From Candidatus Bathyarchaeota archaeon (lineage in GTDB: Archaea > Thermoproteota > Bathyarchaeia > Bathyarchaeales > Bathycorpusculaceae), in contig CAWEPZ010000009.1 of NCBI GenBank assembly GCA_963811105.1, positions 96,001-160,000 of the forward strand: a DNA stretch of 64,000 bases, given 5' to 3'. This document shows, in pieces, positions 40,382 to 57,266 of the stretch. Made by a program: the position numbers and the translations under genes. Numbering within the stretch: position 1 is the first letter of the stretch; the number at the start of each line of letters is the position of its first letter. The notes beneath the pieces are model-generated. The model saw nothing but the letters and a program-made list of their open reading frames with translations. It was not told the DNA's origin and ran no database searches.

Positions 40382-40464
40382 AATGGTTCTGTGGATTGAA
40401 ACTACGTATTTTCCTTTCATAAAGCCTTTCCCCTTCTATGACAACTATCACAGTAGTGAATGAC

Positions 40465-40593
40465 ATGGGGCTGCGAAAAAAACTAAATGTTGAACTATCA
40501 CCTGATCAAGAAGGATTCCTACTGCTATTATGCTTCGCAGGTAGCGGCTTAATCGGATACATATTAACTCATTTGACGGGGTTCCTGCACTAA
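40465..40593 (+). CDS. 42-aa single-TM microprotein (MGLRKKLNVELSPDQEGFLLLLCFAGSGLIGYILTHLTGFLH)
   Basis: manual translation; GTGA SD-like motif. Confidence 0.5.
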   Translation: MGLRKKLNVELSPDQEGFLLLLCFAGSGLIGYILTHLTGFLH

Positions 40594-40929
40594 ATTATGG
40601 CTAAAGCTCTGGAATTTTAATTGAAGATTTTTGTTCAGAATTTGAGTTTTTGAACTTGATTATTTCTTCCAAAAAAAGCGGATTAGGTGAAAACTCTTCT
40701 TTGTGCACAAACAAGAGCAACCTTATTGGTGTACTTAGAGCAGATTTTGAATTCGACTGGGAAAAAATCTGAAGGCAACAAAGATTTTGTCTCTAATAGT
40801 TTTTTTAAAGAAACCTAATTCGTTGTTATAGTTGTGGGTGTGGGTTCACATCCACATGTGTTTAATTGCTAGAATGCCAATCAATAGGATAGCTCAAGTC
40901 ATAAGAGTACATAGGAGGGATAGAATAGT

Positions 40930-41220
40930 ATGAGAACTAGAGAATTTATAAATAGAAGTGTTTTTGCGTTGGACGAGAAAATCGGCGTAGTAAAAAGTAT
41001 AGAAGTAGATCCGGACGAATGGAAAATAACTCATCTTGAAATCGAATTGAAAAAGGAGATAGCTGAATCAGTGCTTGGCGTTAAGAAAAATGGGGTACGA
41101 AATATGTTGGCCGTTTCATCCCTGGAGAAAGGGGTTGCACGCTGGACAGACAATGGATTGCACTTAAAAGTTTCAAAAGATCAGCTTCACATGTACCTAA
41201 GGCCAGTGGTTAAGACTTAG
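40930..41220 (+). CDS. PRC-barrel domain protein
   Basis: EFI-x-x-x-V...KIG-x-V-x-x-IEVD-x-x-x-WKIT; GGAGG SD. Confidence 0.85.
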   Translation: MRTREFINRSVFALDEKIGVVKSIEVDPDEWKITHLEIELKKEIAESVLGVKKNGVRNMLAVSSLEKGVARWTDNGLHLKVSKDQLHMYLRPVVKT

Positions 41221-41233
41221 TTAGGCGTTTGCT

Positions 41234-41391
41234 ATGAATACGTAGTTGACGATTGCTATTATTGTTGTGGTACTTTGGGCGATTGGTTCTTTGCTTTGCC
41301 AGGCGTAGGCTCACTAATACACATCTTATTAGTTATTGCCGTAGTCTTAATGGTAGTTTGGCTGTCGATCGGCAAGAAACTTTGGAAATAA
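41234..41391 (+). pseudogene. lmo0937/DUF5670-like small membrane protein remnant
   Basis: MNT-stop-LTIAIIVVVLWAIG, frameshift, GSLIHILLVIAVV. Confidence 0.65.
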
Positions 41392-41487
41392 TCAACACCT
41401 TTTTTTTGTTAAACGAAATCCAAACTAGAAAATTATGATAAGTAAAGCAGCTTGCTAACTTAGAAGTTTATTTAGAAGGGAGAACCT

Positions 41488-41745
41488 TTGATTAAAATGA
41501 ATTACGTAAAATGCTCCCCAGACGTTATAATTGCCGCGTTAAACGAGGAGAAAGTGTCAGCCCTACGTTGACGGAGATTTCGCGGGAAATTAGTCCTAAC
41601 AAAGTTTTTTAGTTGATGGTCACAGTCACAACTGGACGGTAGAAATTGCCAAAGATTGGGGCGCACATTCTATTTCAAGAAGGCAAAGGGAAAGGCGATA
41701 CTATAACGAAAGCATTTGGATACATGGTTCCGATGTAGATTACAA
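41488..41745 (+). pseudogene. GT2 glycosyltransferase N-terminal remnant
   Basis: VIIAALNEE, VDGHS, TVEIAK, QEGKGKGD across frameshifts; truncated. Confidence 0.75.
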
Positions 41746-41835
41746 CTTAATATTCCTACGAAAACGTAAATAAACATCTGCAACATTGACTGTATAGCCT
41801 CTCCTTAAAAAATGGCCGAAAACATCCAAATAAGT

Positions 41836-41912
41836 GCCGAGGTAGCTCAGCCTGGGAGAGCGCTCGGCTGAAGACCGAGTCGTCGCATGTTCAAACCCTG
41901 CCCTCGGCACCA
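41836..41912 (+). tRNA. tRNA-Phe(GAA), CCA encoded
   Basis: GCCGAGG...CCTCGGC ACCA; anticodon arm CTCGG-CT-GAA-GA-CCGAG; one T-stem mismatch. Confidence 0.93.
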
Positions 41913-42176
41913 CCATTAACATAAAACAATCAACTTGATATGAAGTACATTAGCGTAAAGCGGGCTAAATTTAATTAATTTTGTCTATAAACAATTTTTC
42001 GAGCCTAGGCATTCCCGAAGAGCGTTTAAATCTTACAGCAAGATTCGAAAAAGTCATAAAATTATTAAAAAGACACTGTCTGAGAGAAAAACTGTTATTT
42101 CACTGAAGAAAAGCTTAAAGACGAAAGGGACGTAGTCTAACTTGAAGCAACCGCCGATCATCAAGGTGAACATGAA

Positions 42177-43058
42177 CTGCCTATTTTAGACCTAAACAAC
42201 GTTAGTTCGGGTTATAATAAGCAAACGATCTTACATGATATTAACTTCAAACTACAAGAACCCTCAATTTACGTTGTTTTGGGGCCAAACGGCGCGGGCA
42301 AGACAACTTTGTTTAGAACAATCGCCGTCATTCTGGAGCCATTTAGCGGCAATATTCTTCTTGATGGCCAAAACATAACTTACTCACGTGAAGCTAGAAA
42401 GAAACTGAGTTTCTTCTCGCAGAATGCCATGCCTGAAGAAATGACAGTATATCAGGCACTCAAGTTCTATTCCAATATGGAGGGCGGAGATCCAGACAAG
42501 GCAATTGAACTGCTCGATCTTAGTCAACTAAAAGACAAAAAGTACTCCGATCTTTCTCAAGGGCAGAAAAAAAGAGCGGCCCTCGCAAAAGTGTTTCTGT
42601 GTGAAAGAGACCTCTACCTATTAGATGAACCTACAGCAAATTTGGACCCAGTAGTTTCAAAAGAAATTCGCGATATTATATTAAAGCTGAGCAAGGACAA
42701 AATGATTCTGTACTCTTCCCATAATCTTTATGAAGCAACCGACATCGGCACTTATTTGATCCTAATCAAGAATGGTTCAGTTTCAACGTTTGATAGAATC
42801 TCAAACATCAAGCCCAAGAATTACCGCGTCGGCATCAAAACACAAACGGACATAACAAAAATTGTCGATGCCAAACGTGAGGGCGATTACTACGTCTTGA
42901 GTGTGTCCACCCCCGAGGAGGCTGGCCTTGCTCTCAAAAAAATCGTTGAAACAGGCATCTTAGTTACTGAAATGCGCCAACTAGACAATCCTTTACAAGA
43001 GCTCTTTGAGACATCCGGCGCCGAAAAAGCTACCGAAGGGTCAAAAAATGAAAAGTAA
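42177..43058 (+). CDS. ABC ATP-binding protein (drug-export type), probable CTG start
   Basis: GPNGAGKT, LSQGQKKR, LLDEPT; frame open upstream to CTG 7 nt after AGGTGA. Confidence 0.88.
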   Translation: MPILDLNNVSSGYNKQTILHDINFKLQEPSIYVVLGPNGAGKTTLFRTIAVILEPFSGNILLDGQNITYSREARKKLSFFSQNAMPEEMTVYQALKFYSNMEGGDPDKAIELLDLSQLKDKKYSDLSQGQKKRAALAKVFLCERDLYLLDEPTANLDPVVSKEIRDIILKLSKDKMILYSSHNLYEATDIGTYLILIKNGSVSTFDRISNIKPKNYRVGIKTQTDITKIVDAKREGDYYVLSVSTPEEAGLALKKIVETGILVTEMRQLDNPLQELFETSGAEKATEGSKNEK

Positions 43059-43731
43059 GTTTTTGGTTTTTGCTAAGCGTAGCCTCAACCTAAGTAAAAT
43101 ATATGCGGGAATGGGGCTGGTTCTTGCATCCTTTGGAATTTTTGTGATATACGCCCTATCTCTTCTTGCAGGAAGTTCACGTGCGGCTGTCTTTTTCCTA
43201 CCCGTGTCGTTTATGTCTCTTGGGCTTCTAATTTTTACTATTCCAGTCACATTACTCTATGTATATGACAAAAACAACGGTGTCTTGGAGTATTTGCTTT
43301 CGCTTGGTTGGAACCAAAGCGATATCTTCAAGCAATACCTGAAAGCCGCTCTCTTCCTTGCACTGATCCTCTTAACAGGGGAAGGTGCCGCAATTTTGAT
43401 CGCAGGAGCTATTTCGGGGTCAATTAGTGTTTTTCTCTTGGATTTGTTGATGCTGTTTCTTACTGCGTTTTTGGGTTTATCTGTGGTTTCTTTGGTTACT
43501 GTGGGTATGATGGCTTTTAGTTCGTTACAGAAGCAACGGGTAGGTGCTAACACTCCGCTTGGCTTTGGGCTTGGCGTTGTGTTTATCATTCCAACCTTTT
43601 ATCTTTCTTTTATTGGATTTATTCCAGAGCTCATAGTTGTCCTTTCCCTTTGTATCTTGGCAGGCGGCCTGTCAGCCGGGTTGCTCTTGCTATCGGGCAG
43701 GCTAATTAGAAGGGAAAAAATGTTGCCGTAA
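43048..43731 (+). CDS. ABC-2-type permease
   Basis: about 6 TM; DKNNGVLEYLLS; overlaps ATPase stop. Confidence 0.85.
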   Translation: MKSKFLVFAKRSLNLSKIYAGMGLVLASFGIFVIYALSLLAGSSRAAVFFLPVSFMSLGLLIFTIPVTLLYVYDKNNGVLEYLLSLGWNQSDIFKQYLKAALFLALILLTGEGAAILIAGAISGSISVFLLDLLMLFLTAFLGLSVVSLVTVGMMAFSSLQKQRVGANTPLGFGLGVVFIIPTFYLSFIGFIPELIVVLSLCILAGGLSAGLLLLSGRLIRREKMLP

Positions 43732-44010
43732 ACGATACGGCTCTGAACCTATACAAGTCTGAGGCCCAGTGGATACACATTGGGCATGAAATTTAAGAAG
43801 AAGGACTTAAGCTACCACAAGTTATAAGGTCCCATACTTATCTGCGGCTAAGTCCATAGAGACCTATACCATTTTTGGTTAGAATCCAATTAATTTTGAG
43901 CCAAAACAACTTCGCTTATTTGAGGTTTAAGCGTTGTAATTCTGGAAAGGGATGAGACGAGAAAAGTTATTAGGAGAATTCTGCAAATATTCTTTTGGTG
44001 TTTTTGGTCC

Positions 44011-44391
44011 ATGAAAAAGAATTTTGAGTCAATTGATGAATACATCGCTTCTTTTCCCAAGAAAGTTCAAACTATTTTAGAGCAAATAAGGAAAGCCGTC
44101 AAGGACGCGGCTCCCAAAGCCGAAGAAGCAATTAGTTATAACATGCCAGCGTTCAAACTGAACGGCAATTTGGTCTGGTTTGGAGCATTCAAGAATCACG
44201 TAGGTTTCTATCCACGTGAGTCGGCCATCGAGGAATTCAAGGAAAAACTGTCCAGCTATGAAGTAAGCAAAGTCCAGGGCACTGTCAAATTTCCTTTGGA
44301 TAAGCCAATGCCATTAGATTTGATAAAGGAAATAGTAAAGTTCAGAGTAAAAGAAAACCTGAAAGAAACAAGCGGTTTCAGATACTCATGA
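44011..44391 (+). CDS. YdhG/DUF1801 family protein
   Basis: IDEYIA, AP-x-AEEAISYNMPAF, HVGFYP. Confidence 0.92.
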   Translation: MKKNFESIDEYIASFPKKVQTILEQIRKAVKDAAPKAEEAISYNMPAFKLNGNLVWFGAFKNHVGFYPRESAIEEFKEKLSSYEVSKVQGTVKFPLDKPMPLDLIKEIVKFRVKENLKETSGFRYS

Positions 44392-44401
44392 GTTGCTCAT
44401 G

Positions 44402-44575
44402 CTAAGCCTTCTTCTCGAAGTTGACTTTCACCTCTCCCAAAACCACGTTTTTGGTTATGTCGACGCCGTCTATGTAAACGTGCAAATCAGCCACTTTGCA
44501 GTTCAACCATAAGCCAAGCGCTTTGACTTGAGCCGAAGTTCGGTGGGTTGACGTTAAGATTATTTCTTCTGCCAT
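44402..44575 (-). CDS. 57-aa hypothetical protein (MAEEIILTSTHRTSAQVKALG...)
   Basis: manual translation, intact, below ORF-track cutoff. Confidence 0.5.
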   Translation of the reverse strand: MAEEIILTSTHRTSAQVKALGLWLNCKVADLHVYIDGVDITKNVVLGEVKVNFEKKA

Positions 44576-44679
44576 AAGCGGTCACGTGAATTATTTTGAA
44601 GGCACACCATGCCAAACGATTTATAGAAATTCAGCCAGCTCCTCTATAAGCACTCAATCAAATGAATGAAGAGACCCTC

Positions 44680-45072
44680 ATGTCAACAAATTCTAAAAAT
44701 CTAAGCACAAACATGAACGCAGCTATTGCTTTACTCTACGTATTTACTGCCGCAATTATCGCAGCGTTCATAACAACCATAATTAGCGTTCCAGCAAATG
44801 TTCAGATTCTTGCAGTTGGCTTCATCACGCCACTTGTCGTTCTTAGCTTAGTTTTTATTTTCTATTGCAGGAAAGGGAAAGCTTGGAGTTTTGCTGGAGC
44901 TACTATCCTTGGAGCGATTGGTGTTCTCCTTCGAGTAATTATTAGTACTCAACCCGATATTGAGGTAGGCGGCGGACTTCCAGTTGGTGTAACTGCCCTC
45001 TACATAGTTCTTGGAGCTCTTGTCTCACTCAAAAGCTATGAATCATGGCTAGAACTAAAAGCAGGCATTTAG
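44680..45072 (+). CDS. four-TM membrane protein
   Basis: hydrophobicity pattern. Confidence 0.8.
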   Translation: MSTNSKNLSTNMNAAIALLYVFTAAIIAAFITTIISVPANVQILAVGFITPLVVLSLVFIFYCRKGKAWSFAGATILGAIGVLLRVIISTQPDIEVGGGLPVGVTALYIVLGALVSLKSYESWLELKAGI

Positions 45073-45157
45073 CGCGCCGAGCTAAAATCACCATAACTTA
45101 TTGTGATTACGGCAAATGAACTAACTATTTAATTGGAACATGCCACTTGGAGTAAAT

Positions 45158-45853
45158 ATGCCAACTGACGAACAAGGGAAAAGGAAAGCCTACAAGGGCG
45201 TAGCAATGGAGGGTGTTATAGCCAAGCAGTATAACAGGATTCAAAAGCACATGATTGAAGAATACAAATTATGGGCTAAACTTGTAAGCGACAAAACATC
45301 TATTGGCGGAAACGTGCTTGAAGTTGCTCCCGGTCCAGGATACTTGTCAGTTGAACTCGCAAAGCTTGGCAACCATAACATAACTGGATTAGACATAAGC
45401 AAAACCTTTGTGGAAATCGCACAAAACAAGGCTACGGAAGCAGGAGTAAAGGTTGATTTTCGTCAGGGTGATGCTGCTGAAATGCCTTTTCTGGATGGAA
45501 CATTTGATTTTGTGGTCTGTACTTCTGCTTTCAAAAACTTTCCAGACCCGATTAAGGTCTTAGACGAAATATTTAGGATTTTAAAGGCAAACGGTAAGGC
45601 GCTGATTATCGATATGAATAAGGATGTTCCCAAAAACAAACTCAACGACTTTGTTGATCGCATGAAATTGAACTTGTTTGACTCTTATTTTACCAAGCAA
45701 ACTTTCAAAGGGTTAGCGAAATCGGCTTACACTCGAACCGAAATCCAAGACATCGTCAACAAATCACGATTTACGCAATGTCAGATTACAGATGAAGACA
45801 TCGGCTTTGAGGTATGGCTGGAAAAGGCAAAGGAAACAGAAAGATTAAGCTAA
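45158..45853 (+). CDS. class I SAM-dependent methyltransferase
   Basis: VLEVAPGPG, GLDIS, GDAAEMPF, FDFVV. Confidence 0.93.
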   Translation: MPTDEQGKRKAYKGVAMEGVIAKQYNRIQKHMIEEYKLWAKLVSDKTSIGGNVLEVAPGPGYLSVELAKLGNHNITGLDISKTFVEIAQNKATEAGVKVDFRQGDAAEMPFLDGTFDFVVCTSAFKNFPDPIKVLDEIFRILKANGKALIIDMNKDVPKNKLNDFVDRMKLNLFDSYFTKQTFKGLAKSAYTRTEIQDIVNKSRFTQCQITDEDIGFEVWLEKAKETERLS

Positions 45854-46007
45854 TTTCCTCGAGCAGGATTCGCTTAATAGTTTAATTGCATTATTTCAGT
45901 TAATGATTACAGGCCAAAAATTTCTTGAAGTAACTTGTTTTGCCAATTCCCAATTCGACGAGCCGCTATTTTCTTTAAACGAGCAGACATATAGTTTATT
46001 GATTGAC

Positions 46008-47081
46008 ATGAACCTGGAAGATGTCGCCAAGCTTCGGTTGATTAATCATCAGATTGCTTATTCAGCTACCAAAGAACCCGGCGAAGTTGTCGCTTCGCTT
46101 GGCGCCATGCAGGCTCAAGATTATCAATCGGCACTCTGGGCTATTGGTCTTCGCGCCAAACAAGTAACTCTACCAGAGGTGGAATCAGCGATAAGTAACA
46201 GGGCAATTGTCCGGATTTGGCTGTTAAGAGGCACTTTGCATTTCGTAACAGCCCCTGATGTTCATTGGATGCTAAAGCTGTTAGGACCGCAAATTATTGC
46301 AGCCAGTGCTGGACGCCACCGTCAGCTGAAATTAGATGAGGCAACTTTTATGCGGGCTGAGGAACTATTTGTTGAAGCCCTCCAAAATGGTCAGTTGACT
46401 CGAGATGAAATGTTTAAGGTATTGGAAAAAGGAGGTATTTCTCATGAAGGTCAACGGGGCTACCATATTCTTTGGCGAGCAGCTCTGAAAGGGTTGATTT
46501 GTTTTGGTCCACAAAAGGGCAAAGAGCAGACTTTTGCTTTACTCAAACAATATGTACCAAAAGGCAAGAGTGTGAAACAGGCCGAAGCGTTGAGTGAACT
46601 CGCGCATCGTTACTTTTCAAGCCGAGGTCCAGCGTTGCTTGAGGATTTCGCTTGGTGGTCAGGGTTGAAGCTATCTGATGCGAAGATAGCTTTGGAAACA
46701 GCATCTTCTCGGCTCAGGTCAGAAACAATCGAAGGCAAAAGATATTGGATGCCCCACAGTACGCCCGAAAATGCAAAAGAGTTGGCAACAGCGTTTCTTT
46801 TGCCAGCTTTCGATGAGTATATCCTTGGTTACAGCGACCGAACCGCTACACTTGAACAACCTTATTTTAAGAAGGCAGTATCCAACAACGGCATCTTCTA
46901 CCCCACAATTAGCATTAATGGAAAAGTAGTGGGAACATGGAAGCGTACGTTCAAGAAAAGCAACATAGTCATTATGCTCAGCCCGTTTAAGACACTGACC
47001 CCAACACAAAGAAGTTCAATTGCTTTAGCAGCAAAACATTACAGCAGATTTATGGAAATGTCCGTATCAATCACAAAATAA
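46008..47081 (+). CDS. AlkZ/YcaQ-like (HTH_42) winged-helix DNA glycosylase
   Basis: MQAQD, RGTLH, GPA-x-x-x-DFAWWSGL, LLPAFDEY-x-LGY-x-DR. Confidence 0.9.
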   Translation: MNLEDVAKLRLINHQIAYSATKEPGEVVASLGAMQAQDYQSALWAIGLRAKQVTLPEVESAISNRAIVRIWLLRGTLHFVTAPDVHWMLKLLGPQIIAASAGRHRQLKLDEATFMRAEELFVEALQNGQLTRDEMFKVLEKGGISHEGQRGYHILWRAALKGLICFGPQKGKEQTFALLKQYVPKGKSVKQAEALSELAHRYFSSRGPALLEDFAWWSGLKLSDAKIALETASSRLRSETIEGKRYWMPHSTPENAKELATAFLLPAFDEYILGYSDRTATLEQPYFKKAVSNNGIFYPTISINGKVVGTWKRTFKKSNIVIMLSPFKTLTPTQRSSIALAAKHYSRFMEMSVSITK

Positions 47082-47142
47082 GGTCACTCGGCACTTTTTA
47101 GTTCTATCAAGCAGCGGATCGTTGAGGCCTGCGCTGGTTGAT

Positions 47143-47730
47143 TTAGTTTATTCTAGCATAGCTCAATTCAACAGCACCCGAATTGAACGTCTTTGTCTCG
47201 ATTAGGTTTAGTCTCTGCCTAAAATCAAGATCTTTTAGCAAAAGTTTTCCTTTGCCTAAAATCACAGGATGAACAACAATCTGGTACTCGTCAATCAATC
47301 CCAGTTTCGCAAACGTCTGTGCTATCGTTGCACCACCCACAACGATCATGTTTTTCCCTGGTTGCTGCTTTAGTCTTTTTATTTCTTCAGCTATGTTACT
47401 ATTAATCAGCATGGAATTTTTCCATTCCACGTTGTTTAGAGTACTTGAGATTACAATTTTTTTGGTTTCATCCGCATATCGTGAAAACTTTTTGTCGTTT
47501 TCGGTGCTCTGAGGATTTTTTGCCGCTGCGGGCCAGTATTTCTCCCATATTTGATAAGTTCTTCGTCCAAGGATAGCAGTGTCCGCAAGTTTGAGGTTTT
47601 TCCACATTTCCTCATGGAGGTCTTTCCACATGGTTTCGTCATTGAAGGGCGGAAGATAATCCATTTCATCGTTTGGTCCAGTTGAAAAGCCGTCAAGTGT
47701 CATTTGCATTGACAAGATTATTTTTCTCAA
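47143..47730 (-). CDS. dihydrofolate reductase / RibD C-terminal family protein
   Basis: TLDGF, LGRRTY, GGA-x-IA, LIDEY-x-x-x-VHPVILG-x-G. Confidence 0.92.
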   Translation of the reverse strand: MRKIILSMQMTLDGFSTGPNDEMDYLPPFNDETMWKDLHEEMWKNLKLADTAILGRRTYQIWEKYWPAAAKNPQSTENDKKFSRYADETKKIVISSTLNNVEWKNSMLINSNIAEEIKRLKQQPGKNMIVVGGATIAQTFAKLGLIDEYQIVVHPVILGKGKLLLKDLDFRQRLNLIETKTFNSGAVELSYARIN

Positions 47731-47872
47731 AAAATCACCAAATTAAACCAATCCAATAGCCTATAAAAATGTTTTTAGTTTGCCGTGGAAGCTTAAAAAA
47801 GGCATCCGCTAAACGCTTTCCGTTCTTCCTAAAAGATGAATAGATACTAATACGATTGTTAGCAATGCGGGC

Positions 47873-48115
47873 TCAATTAGTTTTTGACTTTTCTTTTTTT
47901 GCATCTGCCAATATCTTCATCTTGGCAAGCTCAGGTTTTTGTATGTATAAAATTATCGCGTTTGCGTGACCGCGTCCCAAGCCAAAGTCAGTCTTGAGCC
48001 AAGCAAGTAACTCACCATATTTTGTTAGCCCCTTCTCTTTTGCCAATGCTTGGAAATATTCAGGATCCTTGCCAGTCTTAGCCTTGATGTTGTCAATGTA
48101 TGCTTTATATGTCAT
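47873..48115 (-). CDS. DUF4287 family protein
   Basis: YIDNI-x-x-KTGK, WLK-x-x-x-GLGRGHANAI. Confidence 0.88.
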   Translation of the reverse strand: MTYKAYIDNIKAKTGKDPEYFQALAKEKGLTKYGELLAWLKTDFGLGRGHANAIILYIQKPELAKMKILADAKKEKSKTN

Positions 48116-48571
48116 AGTTTCTCAACTTGCTAATACCATTTTTCCTTTCCTAAAAGAGTTTGTCATTTAACGTGTAATTATGATATAGGCGAGCAAAGCA
48201 CTAAATAGTTTTTGGTGTGTATACATTGTAGTCCGGATCTTTCATTTATTTGGTTTCGCTTCCTTTCAGGTTCAAATTTTTAAAAGGTCCGTCCTCTGAT
48301 AATTTTTATTGGTAAATTTGGGGTTAGGATACCCAGCGCCCTAGAGAAAAAAAATCAGAAATCAAGTGTTAAGAAAAATTTTGAAAACTTTTGGGTATGG
48401 GGACTTGTACCTTCAAACTTGGCCAAAATTTGCAAAGATTAGTCCTATTCAATGAGGTTGAGTTAGGGACTCACACCGTGTTCAGACTGTGTAAAAACTT
48501 AGGATTAGAAAGAATTATACTTGACCTTCAAACTCGTCTGTAATTGATAGTTGCTTTCGTCTTGCCTTTTT

Positions 48572-50035
48572 TCATGCTTTTACTAAAGCCATTAACACGC
48601 CAACCCCAAGAATGTTGATAGCCCTTCGCATGTTGTAAGCCAACATCGTAAACCCAACCTCTCCTTTAACCTTCCTAAGCCCCTTCAAGAGCAAATAACC
48701 CTGATTGAAAGCCCGCTTCATGGATCCAAAAGGATGCTCCACTATCTCCCTTCTACGGTGCAACTTCTCTTTTCCCTCAGAAGTTCCCAACCGTGATCTG
48801 AGCCGTTCAACAGCGTCCTCGAATTCCCCCCTAAAAATAATCCTGCCACGCTTATTCCTAGTGCACTTGCTCCTAAAACCACACACCTCGCAACAAAGCG
48901 TCTTGTAAACTCTGCCTCGCTCCGGTTTACCCTTATGAAGGCACTTCCAAAACCCCAGATCCTCACCAGCAGGACAAACATAAACGTCCCTAACCGAGTC
49001 ATACACGAACCTGTCAGTATAGAATCCAGGCTCCGGCACCCCAAAACGCTTATGCGGATTCACAACTGCAGGAATGGGCATAAACACAGTTATGCCTTCA
49101 GCCTCACAATCTTTCAAATCCTTCATAACATAGAACCCTTTGTCGGTCGTTACCTCCAATCTTTCAACTCCAAGAGTCTGCTTTGCTGCTTTAGCATCGT
49201 TGACTAATTGATGGTGATCAGTTGAATTGTTTATCACGTCATAATCCACAATGAGATGCTTCTTGGCATCCACAGACGTTTGGACATTATAGCAAACATC
49301 CAGCCTTTGGCTGTCGACTCGCATCAAACGGCTATCTGGATCCACAAGCGAAACCTCCTTCTGCCCTGTCGCCTTCATCTGGTTCTGAGCATGCTCGTAC
49401 TGCTGCTTTTTCTCTTCAAGCCGGCCTATCCTTTCTTTAAGGTCATTGACTTTGAGGCTATCATTTTTGCCTGAGTCGGCTTTGTCATTCTCATCCATCA
49501 GCCTGAGGTATTCTGCTATCTTCTCCTCGGTCCGTTTAAGTCTCAACGCAACTGTGTTCTCGTTGAAATTGTTGCTCTTCGAGTTTACAGCCTTGAATTT
49601 GCTGCCATCTATGGCAATGAGCTGAGCACCATAGAGGTCGAGTGATCGGCATAGGTAGACGAATTCTTTGAATACAGGCTTTATACAGTCGACGTTGTCT
49701 TTTCTGAAGTCGGCAATGGTTTTGTGGTCTGGAGCGAGCTTCTTCATTAACCACATTACCTCGACGTTGCGGTAGCATTCTCTTTCAAATTTTCTGCTGG
49801 ACCGGATCTGGTTCAGATAGCCATATGTGTAGAGTTTTAGAAGGTCTGAAGGATTGTAAGATGGTCTTCCTGTGTCAGCAAGAATTGAGTGTTTGAAGCC
49901 GAGCTTCTCTAGATTGAGGCTGTCTATGAAGGCGTCAATGAACCTGACTGGGTTTTCTGCATCAACGTATTTGTCGAGGGTGTCTGGGAAGAGTATGGTT
50001 TGGTCTCGGTGTGTTCCGTCAACGTGTTCGCTCAT
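48572..50035 (-). CDS. IS1182-family DDE transposase
   Basis: GRPSY-x-P, SSR, PDHKTIADFR, IDGSK, DPDSR, DKGF, VEHPFG. Confidence 0.96.
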   Translation of the reverse strand: MSEHVDGTHRDQTILFPDTLDKYVDAENPVRFIDAFIDSLNLEKLGFKHSILADTGRPSYNPSDLLKLYTYGYLNQIRSSRKFERECYRNVEVMWLMKKLAPDHKTIADFRKDNVDCIKPVFKEFVYLCRSLDLYGAQLIAIDGSKFKAVNSKSNNFNENTVALRLKRTEEKIAEYLRLMDENDKADSGKNDSLKVNDLKERIGRLEEKKQQYEHAQNQMKATGQKEVSLVDPDSRLMRVDSQRLDVCYNVQTSVDAKKHLIVDYDVINNSTDHHQLVNDAKAAKQTLGVERLEVTTDKGFYVMKDLKDCEAEGITVFMPIPAVVNPHKRFGVPEPGFYTDRFVYDSVRDVYVCPAGEDLGFWKCLHKGKPERGRVYKTLCCEVCGFRSKCTRNKRGRIIFRGEFEDAVERLRSRLGTSEGKEKLHRRREIVEHPFGSMKRAFNQGYLLLKGLRKVKGEVGFTMLAYNMRRAINILGVGVLMALVKA

Positions 50036-50217
50036 TGCTGTTCGTCTCCTTCGGCAGGTTCATCTACTATGACTATGTAGACTGTTTTGCCGAGGTATTC
50101 TTTTGGGCAGGTGACTTTGGCGCCTGTTCCGTAGGCTGTTACTTTTCTTTTTAGGAAGCCTATTATTCCGGTGACTTTGATTTCTGTTGCTGGCTCAAAA
50201 ACTATTTTCTTAGGCAT
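50032..50217 (-). CDS. DUF2080-like transposon-associated small protein
   Basis: RKVT-x-YG-x-GAKV-x-CPKEYLGK-x-VYIVI; overlaps the transposase start. Confidence 0.85.
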   Translation of the reverse strand: MPKKIVFEPATEIKVTGIIGFLKRKVTAYGTGAKVTCPKEYLGKTVYIVIVDEPAEGDEQQ

Positions 50218-50535
50218 ATATAGCTAATATCACTCAATTATACATATAAAACTATCATTCTATCGAAAACCTAACATAGTTTTCACACAGTCTGTGTTGG
50301 GGTTAAGTCCGGTCCGACCTAACCTTTTTTTGGATTTTGTTGTAACGAGGGTTTAAACGACGGTGTCAAGCTAGCCCTCGGCACCAAATAACCTTAATTT
50401 GAGGTTATTTTGCAATATTGGGGATAAATTATAACTTTATGGCTGTTCTCCAAGGAGGGGTAACAAACAAACGGCAGATGGGAATCCACGCGTGCGAAGA
50501 TCCAAAAAAAGATTTGAGCGCGCAGTTGTTTACGC

Positions 50536-50970
50536 TCAATTTTTCTTACGGTAATTGACTGCTACTACTGCGCTGACGGCAATTACAGTTGCGAGCAAGG
50601 CGATTCCTAAGATAGTTAATGTATTGTCCGGTTGGGGTGCAGGAGCGATAAGTGGCGCGTTTTCATCGTTTAGGCTATCTTGAGTAGTGTAGAGTGTGGC
50701 GTTGTCATCGGGTGAAGCTGTACTATTGTCTTGGGCTCTATCTAAGGTTGAATTGTCGTCTGTTGCTGCGGTACTGTCGTCTTGAGCAGTATACAGGGTT
50801 GGATTTTCACTAATTAATCCACCGCCATTGTCGGTTGACGTTGAATCGGGAATTCGAGTTGGATCGATTTGAGCACTTGCACTCGAAATTGCAGTTGCAG
50901 ATAACAAGAACAATGTTAATACCGCAACGGTTAAGAATTTATTTTTCTTGATTTGTGATTTATTTTCCAT
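50536..50970 (-). CDS. surface protein with Asp/Thr-rich repeats, signal peptide and C-terminal TM anchor
   Basis: repeats TLYTAQDDST / TLDRAQDNST / TLYTTQDS. Confidence 0.8.
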   Translation of the reverse strand: MENKSQIKKNKFLTVAVLTLFLLSATAISSASAQIDPTRIPDSTSTDNGGGLISENPTLYTAQDDSTAATDDNSTLDRAQDNSTASPDDNATLYTTQDSLNDENAPLIAPAPQPDNTLTILGIALLATVIAVSAVVAVNYRKKN

Positions 50971-51189
50971 TTTTAACCGCCTATTCATCTAAGTGGAAGA
51001 ATGTTGAATTTAGCACCATGCATTAGAACACAACATCATAATTTTTGGAACGGGGTGTTCTAAACAATAGAACGGAGAATTGCTCATTCATCGTATCTTT
51101 TGACTTCCGAAAATGGACATTCGTCAACAAAAGTGAAAAATATTAAATACTCAATCAAAACATAAAAAAAGTCAAAGAGAAAAGTCAAA

Positions 51190-51885
51190 ATGGATTATTA
51201 CAGAAAGCTCGCAATAATTGCGGGAGTATTATTTATCATTTATACAAGTGGAGATATCCTAAGCTTCTTATTTACGGGACCTGTGTCGGCTCCGGATTAT
51301 CTTGTTAGTGTTTCTGCAAATAGAGGTCTAGTAGGAACAGGAGCCCTTCTTTTGTTCAACGGTGGTCTTTGCGCTTCTGGTATTGCAATTGCGCTATATC
51401 CAGTGCTAAAAAAATTCAATGCAGGGTTAGCTCTTGGAGCTGTTGGTTTCAGGATTTCTGAGGGAGTATTACGTTTTGTTACTGTGTCTGCCCTACTATT
51501 ACTAATAATATTAAGCCAGCAATTTGTACAAGCTGGAGCTCCTGATTCATCGTTTTTCCAAACCTTAGGCGTATTGCTAGTAGCAGGTTTTGAAAGCGGT
51601 TTTGGGTCGATACTGGCTTTTTCCATAGGTGCTCTGCTATATTATATCATATTTTATCGAACAAAACTAGTTCCTCGATGGATATCGGTCTGGGGTCTTG
51701 CTGCTGCCATATTGACCATATTATCATTCGTGTTAGCTACGGTCGGCCTCATCGCTCCTGGCAGTACGGAAGAAACCGTTTTGGCTCTTCCAATGCTCCC
51801 GCAAGAAATGGTTCTTGCGGTATGGCTGATAGCTAAAGGATTCAATCCATCTGTAATTGCTTCCAAGTCTCCTCAAGTGGAATAG
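51190..51885 (+). CDS. DUF4386 family membrane protein
   Basis: AIIAGVLFI, LYPVLK, LVPRWISVWG, EMVLAVWLIAKGFN. Confidence 0.88.
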   Translation: MDYYRKLAIIAGVLFIIYTSGDILSFLFTGPVSAPDYLVSVSANRGLVGTGALLLFNGGLCASGIAIALYPVLKKFNAGLALGAVGFRISEGVLRFVTVSALLLLIILSQQFVQAGAPDSSFFQTLGVLLVAGFESGFGSILAFSIGALLYYIIFYRTKLVPRWISVWGLAAAILTILSFVLATVGLIAPGSTEETVLALPMLPQEMVLAVWLIAKGFNPSVIASKSPQVE

Positions 51886-51997
51886 TTGAATAACCATGGA
51901 AACCCCAGCGTACCAGGAGTCATCTTGTTTTTATGATGAGGGGCGCACGCGCTCGGCGACAAGTGTTAAATAAAGGAAAAAGACATAAAGGCAAGTC

Positions 51998-52411
51998 ATG
52001 GGCGCCAAAACTTCAAAGCCAAATTATGCTAGCTTAATTACCAAAATTCTGATAGTTCTGGTCATACTCAACATTGCTGGGGACGTTTTAGCTGCGGCGT
52101 TTTTTCTGTGGGACCCTTCCTTAGGAGAGTTGTCAGTATACGGCGGTTTGATTGCAAGTTTTGCGGGAAAAAATGGTGCCGTTATGATAACAAGCGCCAT
52201 TCTTTTAGGCTACGCGGTGGTTTACGCTGTTTCTGTCTTTGGGTTGTTAAGTAAATTAAAGTGGGCACCGCCTCTGGTTATTGCCGTTTCGGTAGTGAAT
52301 CGCGCGCTTGCTCTGGGGGTTATTTTTGAGCCAAACGTTGCTTGGCTAATCTGGTCAGCGTGGAAACTCGTCATAATAGCTTTAGCTGGGTATCTTTGGC
52401 GCAAAATGTAA
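51998..52411 (+). CDS. four-TM membrane protein
   Basis: hydrophobicity pattern. Confidence 0.8.
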   Translation: MGAKTSKPNYASLITKILIVLVILNIAGDVLAAAFFLWDPSLGELSVYGGLIASFAGKNGAVMITSAILLGYAVVYAVSVFGLLSKLKWAPPLVIAVSVVNRALALGVIFEPNVAWLIWSAWKLVIIALAGYLWRKM

Positions 52412-52489
52412 TTTAACTTTTGGAGGCGCTCCCTGTTTGGGGAGAGTATCTAAACCGCATCTTAGTTGACCATTTCACCAATCATTCGA

Positions 52490-53428
52490 CTAAGCGGGCA
52501 AGCTATGCTGCAAAGTTATGACGACGTTTCCTTTTTTGTGCCCCGTTTCTACATAGCGGTGGGCTTCGACAATCTGCTCCAAAGGATACGTCCTATCGAT
52601 GACTGCTTTTAGTTTGCCTGCTTCAATTAGACCGCTAAGTGTTGACAAATCATTTGGCTCCATGCCCCCGTTCCCCCAAGTGGAGAGAAAAACGCCGTAT
52701 TCTGTCAGCGATCCCTTCGCCTTTGAACGCGAAATTTTGCCTACTGCGTCAAAAACCAAGTCATACCTCTGACCATTTTTGGCGAAATCTTCTTTGGCGT
52801 AATCAATCACAACATCCGCCCCTAAAGATTTGACTAACTCCAAATTAGCGGCGCTGCATACGCCGGTAACTTGTGCCCCGTAATTTTTAGCAAGCTGAAC
52901 GGCGTAAGTGCCAACGCTTCCCGACGCGCCATAAACAAGAATTTTCTGCCCGTTCTTGACGTTTGCTTTCCTAAGAAAAGCCAGCGCAGTCATACCGCCA
53001 ATGGGAACAGCAGCAGCTTCCTCAAAAGTCAAATTTGCCGGTTTCTTTGCGACCTCGATAACTACTCTTCCCACCACGTCTGTATCTGGAAGACAAATAT
53101 ATTCGGCATATCCCCCACCAAAACCGGTTGCAGCAAAGACTTCATCACCAACCCTAAATTTTTCTACACCTTTGCCAATTGTCTCGACTACCCCAGACAC
53201 TTCCATCCCAAGGACTTTATTTTTTGGCCCTGTTAAACCTAAAGCAAACCGGGCAGGGAGCCAAAAATGGGCTGGCACTTTGAAGCCTCGCATTCTTATG
53301 TCTCCTGCAGTCACGGTTGTGGCATTTATTTTCACCAGTACTTCATTGTCTTTTGGAACTGGTTTTTCTATTTCCTTGAGGTGAAGAACCTCTGGGGAGC
53401 CATATTTTTCGTATATTGCTGCTTTCAT
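52490..53428 (-). CDS. NAD(P)-dependent MDR/quinone-oxidoreductase-like dehydrogenase
   Basis: YGSPEVL, GASGSVG-x-YAVQLAK, GHKKGNVV. Confidence 0.93.
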
Positions 53429-53483
53429 TTCGATTACCCTTTATTGAAAGTTGATTTTTAACTTTAAAAGAAGAAGGAGAAGG

Positions 53484-53885
53484 CTAACCTTCCTGTTTAG
53501 GCCACTTCCATGCATACCAAACAATTAGTGCAATAAACACAACTTCTAAAATCTCATAAAATACATAATAAGCCCAAGTCTCTCCTGGTGCAAGCAGTGC
53601 AGGGACCAAAACACCAGCATAGACTATACCCGCAATGATGTTTACCCGGCGATTCACTTTAGCCGGCAATGCTAGAGACAAGAAAATCATAAAAATCGGA
53701 ATAGCCATTAATATTGCAGCTCCAACCAAAAATACTTGATTAAGCGCTTTTTCTCCTGATAGTACTTTCTCTACCATATCTTGCCTATAGGATCCGAAAA
53801 CATCGTTATATAAATAAAGAAACATTAAAGCTACCCATAATGTTGAAAGCTTTATCTTCACATTTATCTTCACATCTTCTAACAT
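53484..53885 (-). CDS. DUF6326-like membrane protein
   Basis: KLS-x-LW-x-x-x-MFLY-x-Y-x-D, NR-x-x-NI, IVWYAWKWP. Confidence 0.82.
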   Translation of the reverse strand: MLEDVKINVKIKLSTLWVALMFLYLYNDVFGSYRQDMVEKVLSGEKALNQVFLVGAAILMAIPIFMIFLSLALPAKVNRRVNIIAGIVYAGVLVPALLAPGETWAYYVFYEILEVVFIALIVWYAWKWPKQEG

Positions 53886-54093
53886 TGACTTATCTCTCTC
53901 CCCACATTGACAGTTAGGGGGGTATCTGTCGATTTGGATTTAAGACTTGTGTTTGAATACACTAAGAAAGGAAAGAAACTCTTCCCAGAAAATGTCAAGT
54001 AACTGCTTTTACTTACGCGTGTGAAAAAATTTCTGATTTACTTTTGAGGCAAAATACTATTATCCTTTAAAGTAATTATTCCTACATATCAAA

Positions 54094-55074
54094 ATGAAAG
54101 CGATTGTCCACACAAAATACGGTTCTTCTGATGTTCTTCGAACCAAAGAGGTAGAGAGACCTACTCCCAAGGATAATGAAGTACTGATTAAGGTTCAGGC
54201 GGTATCCGTTAATAGATCTGACTGGGAGGGATTGACAGGCTCACCTTTGTATGCCCGCTTTGGGGGTCTTCTTAAACCACGGTACCAGATACTCGGATCG
54301 GATATAGCCGGGCGAGTTGAGATGGTTGGCAGAAACGTCTCGCGATTTCAAACAGGGGATGAGGTCTTCGGAGATACCTCGTTTCGTATGGGTGGTTTTG
54401 CAGAGTATGCCTGCGCTCTTGAAGAAACCTTAGCGCTGAAACCAACCAGTATGACATTCGAGGAGGCAGCGACAATCCCACAAGGAGCTGTGATCGCTTT
54501 ACAGGGGATTCGAGATAAAGGACAAATCCAGCCAGGTCAAAAGGTTTTAATTAATGGCGCTGGCGGCGGCGCAGGTATGTTTGCAGTGCAGCTTGCTAAG
54601 TTATACGGGGCTGAGGTGACTGGAGTGGATAACACCGACAAGCTGGATTTTATGCATTCGCTTGGTGCTGACCATGTCATTGATTACATTAAAGAAGACT
54701 TTACCAAAAATGGACAGCAGTATGATCTGATACTTGATGTAGTAGCTAATCGTTCGGTCTTCGCCTATAAGCGGGCGCTAAGGCTCAATGGAAGCTATTT
54801 TGCTGTCGGAGGTTCTGCAGCTAGACTTTTCCAGATTTTGCTCCTGGGACCATGGATTAGAAGAACATCAGGCAAGAAAATACGGATCCTGGCGGTTCAA
54901 CCAAATCTAAAAGATTTGGTTTATATAACGGAGCTTTGTGAAGCCGGCAAAATCATCCCATTTATTGATAAACGGTATTCGTTAAATGAGGTTCCTGAAG
55001 CGCTTCAGTATCTTGGTGAAGGACGTGTCAAAGGAAAAGTTGTCATAATTGTTAAGCTTAACCTTGATCCGTAG
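54094..55074 (+). CDS. NAD(P)-dependent MDR/quinone-oxidoreductase-like dehydrogenase (paralog)
   Basis: GSDIAG, NGAGGGAG-x-FAVQLAK, GRVKGKVV. Confidence 0.93.
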   Translation: MKAIVHTKYGSSDVLRTKEVERPTPKDNEVLIKVQAVSVNRSDWEGLTGSPLYARFGGLLKPRYQILGSDIAGRVEMVGRNVSRFQTGDEVFGDTSFRMGGFAEYACALEETLALKPTSMTFEEAATIPQGAVIALQGIRDKGQIQPGQKVLINGAGGGAGMFAVQLAKLYGAEVTGVDNTDKLDFMHSLGADHVIDYIKEDFTKNGQQYDLILDVVANRSVFAYKRALRLNGSYFAVGGSAARLFQILLLGPWIRRTSGKKIRILAVQPNLKDLVYITELCEAGKIIPFIDKRYSLNEVPEALQYLGEGRVKGKVVIIVKLNLDP

Positions 55075-55270
55075 CTTTGTTGCCTTAGTCTTTATCGAAG
55101 TCCTTTCAACTTTTGGCAATCCAAGCAACTCCTATGTCTACCTTCTGATCGACACAGTAATGAACATTCCAAGGATCCTTAGCTCCTGGAATAGTTATTG
55201 GCTAACTATACACAAGGGCGTACGGACAAACCTAATTTTGGTCTGCGTTTTGAACCAGTTCGGGCATGGT

Positions 55271-55517
55271 GACGGGCAGCTTCAAACCTTGGTCAAAACT
55301 TAGGAAAATAGCCCTATTCAATGAGTCTCACCCCTGGGACTCATACCGTGTAGGGGGTAAGCCGGTACGACCTGCCCATGTTTTTTAGATAATGTAGTAA
55401 CGACGGCTTAAACGACGGTGTCAATCTAGCCCTCGGCACCAAATACCCTTAATTTGAGGTTATTTTGCAATATTGGGCATAAATTACAACATTATGTGCG
55501 CTCTGCAAGGAGGGTAA
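55271..55517 (+). repeat. module junction repeat 2 (right end, tRNA-like core 55429-55441, left end)
   Basis: GGGACTCATACCGTGTAGGGGGTAAGCC; AACGACGG twice at 55399 and 55411; core; then AATACCCTTAATTTGAGGTTATTTTGCAATATTGGG as at 50387 onward. Confidence 0.9.
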
Positions 55518-55659
55518 TGAGATATGAAAGAAGGAACGTTTCTGCTCATAGATTTTGTCGGAAAAGCAAAATAATGGTTGAAGCAAACAATATTGTTTGA
55601 CGATTGGAGGTAGCAGGTTGATTTCGGGGACAAGGGGCCTCCAAATATTTTTCTAAATG

Positions 55660-55929
55660 TTAGAGCATTTTTGAAAAGTCATCGTACACTTTGCTTCTAT
55701 GGCCGACAAAAAGAATGACTACTTGGTTTTTGTTTTGGTCTATTTCATAGATGACGCGGTAGTCGCCTACTCGTAGACTCCAGAAATCTGATTGTTTTAG
55801 GGGTTTTCCTATTTTGTCGGGGTTTTCACGTAGTTGTTTTGCGCTATCGATTATTCTGGTTCGGATGTGTTCTTCAGTTTTTTGGAGTTCTTTTGCTGCT
55901 TTAGGATGCAGAAGTACTTTGAAAGTCAC
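55660..55929 (-). CDS. RelE/ParE-family type II toxin
   Basis: A-x-KEL, L-x-ENP, SLRVGDYRVIY, VGHR-x-x-VY. Confidence 0.93.
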   Translation of the reverse strand: MTFKVLLHPKAAKELQKTEEHIRTRIIDSAKQLRENPDKIGKPLKQSDFWSLRVGDYRVIYEIDQNKNQVVILFVGHRSKVYDDFSKML

Positions 55930-56147
55930 TCTAGTTCCTCTATAGGAATGAGGGATTCTGGGTGTTGTTTTGCTTCTTCGCTTCGTTCCATGAGTGTGTT
56001 AAAGAAGTTGCATGTTTTTTCGCGTTCTTGGTAGTACGTGATGATTGATTTTATGGCGTCGCTTCGGTTTTTGAAGCGGCCTTCTGCTACCCATCCATCT
56101 ATTTCCTCGAGGGTTTTTTGTGGAAGACGTAGTTGTACTTGAGCCAA
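55926..56147 (-). CDS. ribbon-helix-helix antitoxin
   Basis: VQLRLP...ID-x-x-V-x-x-G-x-F-x-NRSDAI; 4-nt overlap with toxin. Confidence 0.9.
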   Translation of the reverse strand: MAQVQLRLPQKTLEEIDGWVAEGRFKNRSDAIKSIITYYQEREKTCNFFNTLMERSEEAKQHPESLIPIEELE

Positions 56148-56430
56148 ATATGTCGCCGTAAACAGTACTGTTTACAACTCACTTAAACGTTTCCTAAACA
56201 ACCATCCGAATCAGTCTTCTTAGCCCTTGAGATGCCTTCAACTGAGGTTCCATAGGAACTTTCAAGGATAACACAGAAACAAGAAATGGAGACATGGAGT
56301 TTTCTAACTATATTAGTCTTAGCTATAGTTTTGTCAGTGATTGCTATTGCGACAGTTGTAGTTATCTATAAAAAATTGAAACTCATGGAAGAGACCACTT
56401 TTTGCCTAATAATTAAGAAAACTATGATCT

Positions 56431-56576
56431 AAAATTAGGAAATAGCCTTATTCGGTAAGTCTTAGCATAGGGACTCATACCGTGTAGAGGATAAGCCCAG
56501 TATGACCTGCCCCTGTTTTTTAGATAATGTTGTAACGACGGCTTAAACGACGGTTTCAAGCTAGCCCTCGGCGCCA
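56431..56576 (+). repeat. module junction repeat 3 (right end plus core; distal island boundary)
   Basis: GGGACTCATACCGTGTAGAGGATAAGCC...AACGACGG twice...GCCCTCGGCGCCA; no left-end sequence follows. Confidence 0.88.
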
Positions 56577-56647
56577 TAACTTCTTCTGTTTCTGAGACGT
56601 TCACATTTATTTCTTCAATTTCACAAATCTGATAGAGAGGAATATGA

Positions 56648-57201
56648 ATGGAACTTAATTAGTGCATTAAAGGTGGAAGAAGCATTAGAGCTTATACGGC
56701 TGAACCAGTTTCGAAAGAACAAATTAACGCTACCTTGGAAGCAGGCATATGGGTGCCCAAAGCGATGAATAGACAGCCGTGGAAGTTCATAATCATAGAA
56801 GACAAGAAACTACTCAAGCTCATATCTGAGAAACTAAGATTTTAGTCAAGCAAATGATGCCTCGGTTAGCTAAAAATTTTTGCACTGAAGCGGATATTGT
56901 CTGTTACAACGCACCCGTGATCATATTAGTTTGCACAGAGAAGGATGAACAATGGATAACTTAGACGTCATCGACAGTGTTCTTGCTGCACAAAACATGT
57001 TCTTAAAGGTTTATGAGTTGGGGCTTGGAACATGCTAAATGGGCTTAGTTAACTTCCTAAAACCCAAACCTGACATTCTCAAAAAAAATTGGCGTTCCGG
57101 AGAATTATCAAATGATGGTACCTTTCATTTTAGGTCACCCAAAAACCAAACAAGGCACGGGAAAAAGGAAGAAACCAGAAATCAAAGAATGGCTGACGTA
57201 A
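56648..57201 (+). pseudogene. nitroreductase family remnant
   Basis: MELN-stop-CIKGGRSIRAY...NRQPWKF...NAPVII...LAAQNMFL...LGLGTC with stops and frameshifts. Confidence 0.85.
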
Positions 57202-57266
57202 AATCACCGCAAAAAATAGAGTCAGACAACGAAAGACTCGCATAAAATTCAATAATCGGAAGCCGT

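Follow-up and report, generated by a model that had tools for sequence, protein, structure and literature searches.

The DNA analyzed here is a 64,000-nt window of a Candidatus Bathyarchaeota archaeon genome (assembly GCA_963811105.1, contig CAWEPZ010000009.1, positions 96,001 to 160,000), in which a tRNA-Phe gene is followed by a 14.7-kb island (41913-56576) of three gene modules lying head to tail and ending in copies of the tRNA 3' end. The genome that contains the window is called G000, its assembly comprises 15 contigs with 96.65% completeness and 4.3% estimated contamination, and window coordinates are used throughout for the array. ARAGORN calls a single tRNA-Phe in G000, with anticodon gaa, at 41836-41912. 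The last 13 nt of this gene, GCCCTCGGCACCA (the core), occur exactly at 41900, 50374 and 55429 and with one mismatch at 56564, all on the + strand, as an initial annotation of the window had claimed; shuffled sequences give 0.48 such matches on average, and the observed four were reached in 0/100 shuffles. Each module consists of a left arm (L2 or L1), cargo, a right arm and then a core copy, and the internal junctions (right arm-core-left arm) are therefore attP-like in form. The modules hold up to 7 genes on both strands, and the features are, in order:

41836-41912, + strand: tRNA-Phe(gaa), whose last 13 nt (41900-41912) form the core at the attL side of the array.
41913-42072, + strand: left arm L2 of module 1.
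42279-47730, both strands: cargo of module 1, with an ABC ATPase (42279-43058), a membrane protein, a DUF1801 protein, an S-adenosylmethionine (SAM) methyltransferase (45140-45853), an AlkZ-like glycosylase (45903-47081) and a RibD_C reductase (47143-47730, - strand).
48411-48482, + strand: distal part of the right arm of module 1, CTTCAAACTTGG ... GGGACTCACACCGTGTT, containing GGGACTCACACCGTGT.
48483-50293, - strand: insertion sequence (IS) of 1811 bp, with a DDE transposase (48572-50035, - strand), terminal inverted repeats CAGACTGTGT.AAAAC and a TGTT duplication.
50294-50386, + strand: proximal part of the right arm of module 1 (50294-50373), with ACGAGGG/ACGACGG boxes and GTCAAGCTA, followed by core 2 (50374-50386).
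50387-50470, + strand: left arm L1 of module 2, with the inverted repeat AATAACCT/AGGTTATT at its start.
50536-55074, both strands: cargo of module 2, with a secreted or membrane protein, a DUF4386 protein, a membrane protein, a DUF6326 protein and two zinc-type dehydrogenases (52490-53428, - strand; 54094-55074, + strand).
55271-55441, + strand: right arm of module 2, intact (55271-55428), followed by core 3 (55429-55441).
55442-55520, + strand: left arm L1 of module 3.
55660-56147, - strand: cargo of module 3, a ParE-family toxin (55660-55929) and an RHH antitoxin (55926-56147).
56400-56576, + strand: right arm of module 3 and core 4 (56564-56576, GCCCTCGGCGCCA, one mismatch), the attR end of the whole array.
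56647-57186, + strand: native flank, a nitroreductase-like gene of which the window copy has no long open frame.

The module sizes of 8.46 kb (including the 1.81-kb IS, a later insertion), 5.04 kb and 1.12 kb agree with the ~8.5, ~5.0 and ~1.1 kb estimated at first. Upstream of cores 2-4 lies an 80-nt family of right ends with 68-91% identity; the right arms of copies 3 and 4 are similar over ~150 nt, identity is 88% over the 134 nt that span cores 2 and 3, and two direct ACGACGG-type boxes, 12 bp apart, are present in 3/3 right-arm copies. The expectation of one and the same ~150-170 bp end before every core thus holds as a conserved family, but in module 1 this end is split by the IS, while the two octamer-like boxes were found in all three copies as described. 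The left end L1 follows cores 2 and 3 with 88-90% identity across 73-86 nt, which bears out the shared start of ~75 bp proposed for them. Module 1 opens instead with a different conserved left arm of 160 bp, L2, which is 85-92% identical to sequence found 3' of a right arm and core in three other genomes (G001, G002, G116) and in the metagenome contigs L140, L143 and L145. Since L2 stands at the start of module 1, conserved arms are present at both ends of all three modules. The initial annotation had missed L2, the IS in the right arm of module 1, and a fifth junction on contig C11 of the same genome (see below). The most distal core (56564) is the sole core with a mismatch, which is consistent with its age if the distal core is the displaced original tRNA end. 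As to the cargo itself, the frame of the ABC ATPase (42279-43058) starts at the Walker A region (profile position 17) and may be truncated or have an upstream start.

For the boundaries of the island, 29 tRNA-Phe loci of the genus, that of G000 included, were oriented; 8 loci were chosen for junction matches or as controls, 6 for an integrase beside the tRNA and 14 for contig size alone (the blind loci). The conserved right flank consists of a nitroreductase gene (Pfam) followed by DUF429, amino-acid kinase, hydantoinase-like and ATP-grasp genes. At two empty sites the open reading frame (ORF) of the nitroreductase, intact in G097, starts 68 nt (G097) and ~66 nt (G099) after tRNA-Phe, and in the window the homologue starts 70 nt after the last core. 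Because the flank adjoins the tRNA at the empty sites of these relatives, the 14.7 kb of 41913-56576 are a precise insertion, and the proposed anchoring of the array at the 3' end of tRNA-Phe stands. The distance between tRNA and flank ranges from 0.07 to 19.3 kb among the 17/29 loci at which the flank was found, with the window at 14.7 kb, and 5/14 blind loci are empty or nearly so. The island shows what is expected of a tRNA-targeted island, namely insertion at the 3' part of the tRNA gene, the tRNA end repeated in direct orientation where the island stops, and empty sites in relatives.

Some further observations concern the target itself. Metagenome contig L133 (~270-320) carries right arm and core, the first 42 nt of L1 and then directly the nitroreductase flank, an arrangement that is either an "empty" module or a deletion scar. 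The tRNA-Phe was matched at positions 32-77 alone in G003, G019, G026, G030, G076, G085, G086, G098, G107 and G117, and on contig L146 its halves are separated by ~27 nt, a pattern suggesting that some members of the genus have a tRNA-Phe with an intron or with a 5' half that has diverged.

The island carries no integrase: the PF00589 profile and a tblastn search with the integrase known from this site gave zero matches in C9:137913-152576, which corresponds to the island. The claim that the modules have no recombinase gene is accordingly right for integrases, and wrong in that the DDE transposase of the IS was overlooked. Neither the island nor any other complete module of its kind that was examined has an integrase of its own beside an att site, as tRNA-integrated elements do. 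A serine recombinase was also considered as a helper and rejected, since PF00239 has zero matches in G000 at its 96.65% completeness.

We use the term class B for integrase-less modules with the right arm and/or the L1 or L2 left arm. Class-B arms were found at tRNA-Phe in 9/29 loci, and in 4/14 of the blind ones (G067, G078, G115 and G116); the L1 arm follows tRNA-Phe directly in G010, G012, G067, G078, G115 and G116. Complete modules from L1 to right arm measure 16.6 kb in G115, 11.1 kb in G116 and 4.05 kb in G078, and after them G116 continues with L2 and G115 with a second L1. The order of the arms differs between genomes: G116 has tRNA-L1 module-right arm-core-L2 where the window has tRNA-L2 module-right arm-core-L1. 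Relatives carrying one identical, invariant block would have argued against mobile modules; instead the number, order and cargo of the modules vary from relative to relative. The combination of right arm and core is present in 15/36 genomes of the same genus and in 0/24 genomes of other genera of the order, as well as in 36 metagenome contigs, where it is followed by L1 or L1-like hairpins, L2, an integrase-type left end, or other sequence; one of these contigs, L144, has three junctions in a row. Modules whose cargo is unrelated share the same L1 arm (88-96% identity) at their start in no fewer than 7 genomes and 9 metagenome contigs. The cargo of class B is varied; among it are ABC transporters, dehydrogenases and regulators, toxin-antitoxin pairs, an amidase, a TIR-domain protein and a protein of beta-lactamase fold, ATPases like CDC48 and Vps4, a TATA-binding protein (TBP), and CheB/CheR with a histidine kinase. 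Pfam found zero recombinases in the complete L1-to-right-arm modules of G115, G116 and G078, where 22 of the 32 ORFs of at least 90 aa were scanned. A hidden Markov model (HMM) of 10 integrases gave only 2 marginal matches of ~15 bits, and no intact integrase, in class-B loci totaling 396,246 nt, from 36 metagenome contigs and 14 loci of genomes (with G022 left out since its broken integrase was already known).

Sequence comparison between genomes further indicates that class-B modules have been exchanged between species of the genus. The genes of module 2 have counterparts of 92-99% identity in the G001 island and in the L1 modules of three other genomes (G010, G012, G067), and the cargo is 93-94% identical at the nucleotide level, while in these same four genomes the nitroreductase flank is 72-74% identical in nucleotides and the flank proteins 50-72% identical in amino acids. 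In module 3, the ParE/RHH genes match a pair beside the broken integrase element of G022 with 94% nucleotide identity across 688 bp, whereas the flank proteins of G022 are 54-66% identical to those of the window.

The right-arm design is found elsewhere in G000 as well, with two direct boxes 12 bp apart, the motif A(A/T)(G/T)CT(A/T) and a short core. These other cores match three further tRNAs at their 3' ends, and each lies on the strand of its own tRNA and downstream of it, at distances of 2.4 kb for tRNA-Leu(gag), 1.0 kb for tRNA-Ser(gct) and ~8.5 and 10 kb for tRNA-Gly(ccc). No recombinase gene was found at the Leu-, Ser- and Gly-core arm loci of G000. The recurrence of the design with other tRNA cores ties the arms to tRNA-directed recombination and disfavors an unrelated non-coding function, and the class-B family is genus-wide, with cores of at least four tRNAs. 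Arrays of the integrase type, in which the identity blocks are long, are present at other tRNAs of G000. The 3' part of tRNA-Ser(cga) has three direct repeats at 4.2, 6.4 and 9.7 kb (C11:1292051-1302000) and that of tRNA-Pro(ggg) has two at 1.5 and 5.3 kb (C11:655614-661000); judged by their long identity blocks, these would be further tandem arrays of the integrase type. In a 40-kb region, C11:520000-560000, tRNA-Ser(gct), tRNA-Ser(gga) and tRNA-Gly(ccc) are accompanied by several right arms of class B with cores of Ser or Gly type, by the third copy of the IS and by a degraded integrase, and the region reads as a mosaic of stacked islands.

In total G000 has one tRNA-Phe and five Phe cores. 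The fifth lies in a right arm-Phe core-L1 junction on the - strand of contig C11 (C11:566173-566342, within locus L016, C11:566173-568218), far from tRNA-Phe. The module of this junction shares a methyltransferase (85% aa identity) with module 1, and ends ~300 bp upstream of tRNA-Ser(gct) beside an apparent integrase-type right end with an unassigned tRNA core. The C11 junction was likely placed there by rearrangement between att sites.

The IS that splits the right arm of module 1 lies between its distal (48411-48482) and proximal (50294-50373) parts. Its transposase of 487 aa matches the Pfam families DDE_Tnp_1_6, DUF772 and DDE_Tnp_1, and from these domains, rather than from formal typing, we read it as IS1182/IS5-type. 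G000 has 3 copies that are 100% identical, with duplications TGTT, ATTA and TTGG; a DDE transposase, terminal inverted repeats, a short target duplication and multiple identical copies are thus all present, as in a genuine IS. In at least 7 instances the IS sits at one identical position of the right arm, between GGGACTCAYACC(G) and GGGGTTAAGYCC:

Window 48483-50293: the copy in module 1.
G000:C11:566346-568156: the copy beside the fifth junction.
Window 2900-3200, - strand: a degenerate right arm, outside the reported span, in which a remnant of this IS end is left at the identical position.
L072 (G116), L025 (G020), L121 and L152: further right arms with the IS.

Because the 4-bp duplications differ (TGTT, ATTA, TTTA, TTTC, TGTA), these insertions are independent, and the IS appears to target the class-B right arm. 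Some IS elements are known to target the attC sites of integrons.

Integrase-bearing elements do occur at the same tRNA. In G029 a tyrosine recombinase of 391 aa with an N-terminal zinc-ribbon-like domain (PF00589, DUF7838) is encoded directly after tRNA-Phe, in an element that also has a rolling-circle replication protein (Rep) and, at a distance of 5.4 kb, a second core. In 9 genomes a protein with at least 55% identity to this integrase lies directly beside tRNA-Phe, 2 of the 9 being broken, and relatives of it occur in Candidatus Bathyarchaeia records. The left end of these elements is CATTA.TTGGAATAAACCTGCGACAC-like, the right end reads ATATCGCCA...GTCTTAACT, and the identity block is longer and extends into the T arm (CAAACCCT + core). 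The search for an integrase-bearing member of the family, suggested at the outset, has thus yielded integrase elements at the same tRNA in 9 relatives, but their arms differ from those of class B; since both left and right arms differ, these elements are not obviously class-B helpers. Broken combinations were seen in G022, where a broken integrase is joined to a class-B right arm, and in G078, where an integrase remnant follows a class-B module. G000 itself has full-length homologues of the integrase with 30-40% identity on contigs C14 (two), C8 and C6, and many integrase fragments beside tRNAs. Contig C14 (37 kb), with two full-length integrases of the same family, one of which ends 93 bp before tRNA-Asp, may be an island or an extrachromosomal element.

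Some further candidates for the nature of the junctions were tried and rejected. A known RNA family is ruled out by Rfam, which over 40000-58000 (E up to 1) returned nothing except the two tRNAs. A split integrase of the SSV type across the junction is ruled out since neither strand has an open frame through right arm-core-left arm, and a conserved small ORF after L1 since the frames differ among the copies and the C11 copy stops after two codons. As for a viral source, the exact IUPAC pattern of right arm plus core was found in 0 viral contigs, as was the pattern of the L1 hairpin; a loose two-box pattern matched 8 viral contigs, none with AAGCTA or a tRNA core, and these are taken as chance matches.

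We consider it about 65% probable that the island consists of serially integrated, non-autonomous, att-bounded class-B modules at tRNA-Phe. This draws directly on the anatomy of the array, its exact boundaries, the variation between species, the lack of an integrase, and the transfer between species. Beyond these we infer that the 14.7-kb island would have been built up by successive site-specific insertions into the one tRNA-Phe gene at its 3' end, with strand exchange by a tyrosine integrase inside the 13-nt tRNA end. The two direct ACGACGG-type boxes, located 9-10 bp from the core, would be putative protein-binding arm sites. Because the modules carry only recombination sites, the mobility function must come from something else, and the integrase would presumably be encoded elsewhere and supplied either in trans, the mobilization that we infer, or in cis by an integrase-bearing element landing beside the modules. 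A bolder and so far tentative version, rather improbable in our estimate, is that class B may be a dedicated archaeal cassette system, in which a standard right arm (two boxes and AAGCTA) and interchangeable Phe, Leu, Ser and Gly cores would allow integrase-less multi-gene modules to be captured, stacked, reordered and passed between species at tRNA 3' ends by integrases encoded elsewhere, with a dedicated IS parasite at a fixed position in the arm.

Several observations weigh against serial integration of non-autonomous modules. Class-B arms lie at tRNA-Phe as predicted in the 9/29 loci given above, but one junction in G000 (C11) and one in G001 (C3) are away from it. The modules are mosaic between genomes and are not conserved as whole units, and their spread between species could proceed by homologous recombination through the identical tRNA and the conserved arms, with no site-specific step. 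No integrase linked to class-B arms was found: those integrase elements of which both ends are seen (G029, G066, G062) differ from class B in both arms, and G022, which is the only combination of an integrase with a class-B right arm, may be a deletion hybrid. A close orthologue of the tRNA-Phe integrase is lacking in G000, the best homologue being 38-40% identical, so that the array is probably at rest in this genome. Finally, neither an excision product nor a circle nor polymorphism within a population was seen in read data, which were short Logan contigs of relatives in which parts without cover are uninformative, and of which the best of 24 runs carries 0.31 of the sampled words. In 4 runs, other populations join the tRNA-Phe end to L1 directly and the right arm plus core to other sequences; these joints are single low-depth contigs with short sides and were given no weight.

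The strongest competing explanation is a fossil array, in which the modules would be decayed autonomous integrative plasmids or viruses that lost their integrase after integration, the array now being fixed, and in which the differences between species would stem from vertical descent, deletion, and homologous recombination between junctions or via the conserved tRNA. Both integrase loss after integration and tandem integration are on record in archaea, as described in PMC8371274, and G000 offers matching observations: the integrase fragments adjoining tRNAs, the arrays of 3'-end repeats at other tRNAs, the absence of a cognate integrase, and signs of decay in the form of the IS and the broken flank gene, to which can be added that module 3 shares its ParE pair and right arm with the G022 element and its broken integrase. 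Independent integrase losses would not, however, leave the same L1 before cargo as unrelated as that of the genomes and metagenome contigs counted above. Class-B arms are also unlike those of the integrase-bearing elements on both sides, complete modules from L1 to right arm have no integrase remnant inside, and cargo is much more similar across species than the flanks are. We therefore regard a fossil origin as possible but rather unlikely.

The other explanations fare worse. The initial annotation had likened the array to an integron-style cassette array, and the repeated junctions with variable cargo, as well as an integrase gene directly beside tRNA-Phe in some relatives, would suit a platform where promoterless cassettes are taken up and reshuffled at one fixed attachment site by a dedicated integrase beside the tRNA, and are expressed from a common promoter. 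This likeness did not survive the analysis: modules of up to 7 genes on both strands are unlike promoterless cassettes, the tRNA in the window has no adjoining integrase and no attI or promoter platform, the junctions fold no better than shuffles (z -0.25 and -1.38 on the two strands), and the integrases beside tRNA-Phe in relatives belong to small Rep-gene elements with arms of their own, which makes such a platform very improbable. We give still less credence to the idea that the ~250-bp junction has a non-coding function of its own (as small RNA, tRNA-like element or regulatory sequence), was spread by duplication and matches the tRNA through a shared function. The junctions away from tRNA-Phe in G000 and G001 would fit it, and L1 does hold a hairpin followed by a T run, a TATA-like stretch and a GGAGG motif, but Rfam and folding gave no signal, the limits of the array coincide exactly with the tRNA end and the native flank, and the right arm also occurs with the cores of other tRNAs, downstream of those tRNAs. 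That the repeats were collapsed or mis-joined during assembly could be suspected in a metagenome-assembled genome with the contig number and contamination given above and with 1.8-kb IS copies that are 100% identical, but both right-arm IS copies are flanked on each side by matching 4-bp duplications and the same junction types and arrays appear in many independent assemblies (G115, G116, L144), and we consider the chance of such an artefact negligible.

Bathyarchaeia are an abundant, uncultured archaeal group, and the locus shows movement of accessory genes between species of one genus, including transporters, oxidoreductases, toxin-antitoxin pairs and chemotaxis-type enzymes. Should a helper integrase of the serially integrated modules be found, the conserved arms would constitute a testable recombination system for archaea without genetic tools and would mark the boundaries of recently transferred DNA in metagenome-assembled genomes, and the site-specific IS in the right arm would provide a second, independent handle on arm recognition. 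If the tentative reading of a dedicated cassette system were true, class B would do for Bathyarchaeia-type archaea of soil and wetland what integrons or satellite elements do elsewhere.

In the literature searched on this question no report was found of an archaeal integrase-less family with arms of its own, which is not proof of absence, and for integrated elements of Candidatus Bathyarchaeia mainly virus and provirus surveys were found. Integron cassettes form arrays of mobile units without a recombinase of their own, each ending in a recombination site. The window resembles them in being an array of recombinase-less mobile units with a recombination site at the end of each unit, and differs in having neither attC-like folded sites nor an intI/attI/Pc platform, in its multi-gene bidirectional modules, and in that the site is a tRNA end. 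The G029 element, with its integrase, rolling-circle Rep and length of 5.4 kb, is an ordinary member of the archaeal tRNA integrative elements; those with intact integrases we take to be the class named pNOB8-type or class II. Such elements with intact tyrosine integrases share with the window the tRNA 3' end, the direct repeat, arrays from re-use of the site, and integrase loss, and both tandem integration and loss of the integrase are on record for archaea in the accounts given by PMC6563490 and PMC8371274. Archaeal cryptic integrated elements are, however, defined by their integrase as those two reports describe them, whereas the modules in the window have none and have separate conserved arms.

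Closer parallels come from bacteria. The ssrA islands of Dehalococcoides, as presented in PMC3146451, comprise 16 with a conserved serine-recombinase module next to attL and 15 without an integration module that were proposed to be cis-mobilizable. They resemble the array in lying in tandem downstream of a single-copy small-RNA gene, with a 20-bp repeat of its 3' end, variable cargo and a conserved motif just upstream of each repeat (PMC3146451). They have an evident helper in the serine recombinase described there, whereas class B has none, G000 has no serine recombinase, the target is a tRNA gene, and the host is an archaeon. The cis-mobilizable elements (CIMEs) of Streptococcus, in the description of PMC5704250, stand in tandem with other elements at 3' ends of target genes, be they tRNA or other genes, and their mobility is put down to an adjacent integrase-bearing element with or through which they would be carried; like the modules of the array, they have no integration and transfer genes and keep attL and attR (PMC5704250). 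CIMEs are defined in that source as decay products of a known integrative and conjugative element (ICE) or integrative and mobilizable element (IME) whose att arms they carry. No such descent from an ICE or IME with the same att arms was found here: the class-B arms are unlike those of the integrase elements at the same site, and the family is genus-wide, spans several tRNA specificities and is archaeal. The closest known concept is nevertheless the tandem accretion of cis-mobilizable elements, of which the array at tRNA-Phe appears, by this analogy, to be the archaeal counterpart; tandem accretion is of a kind already known, and the family to which the window belongs is more extensive than first described.

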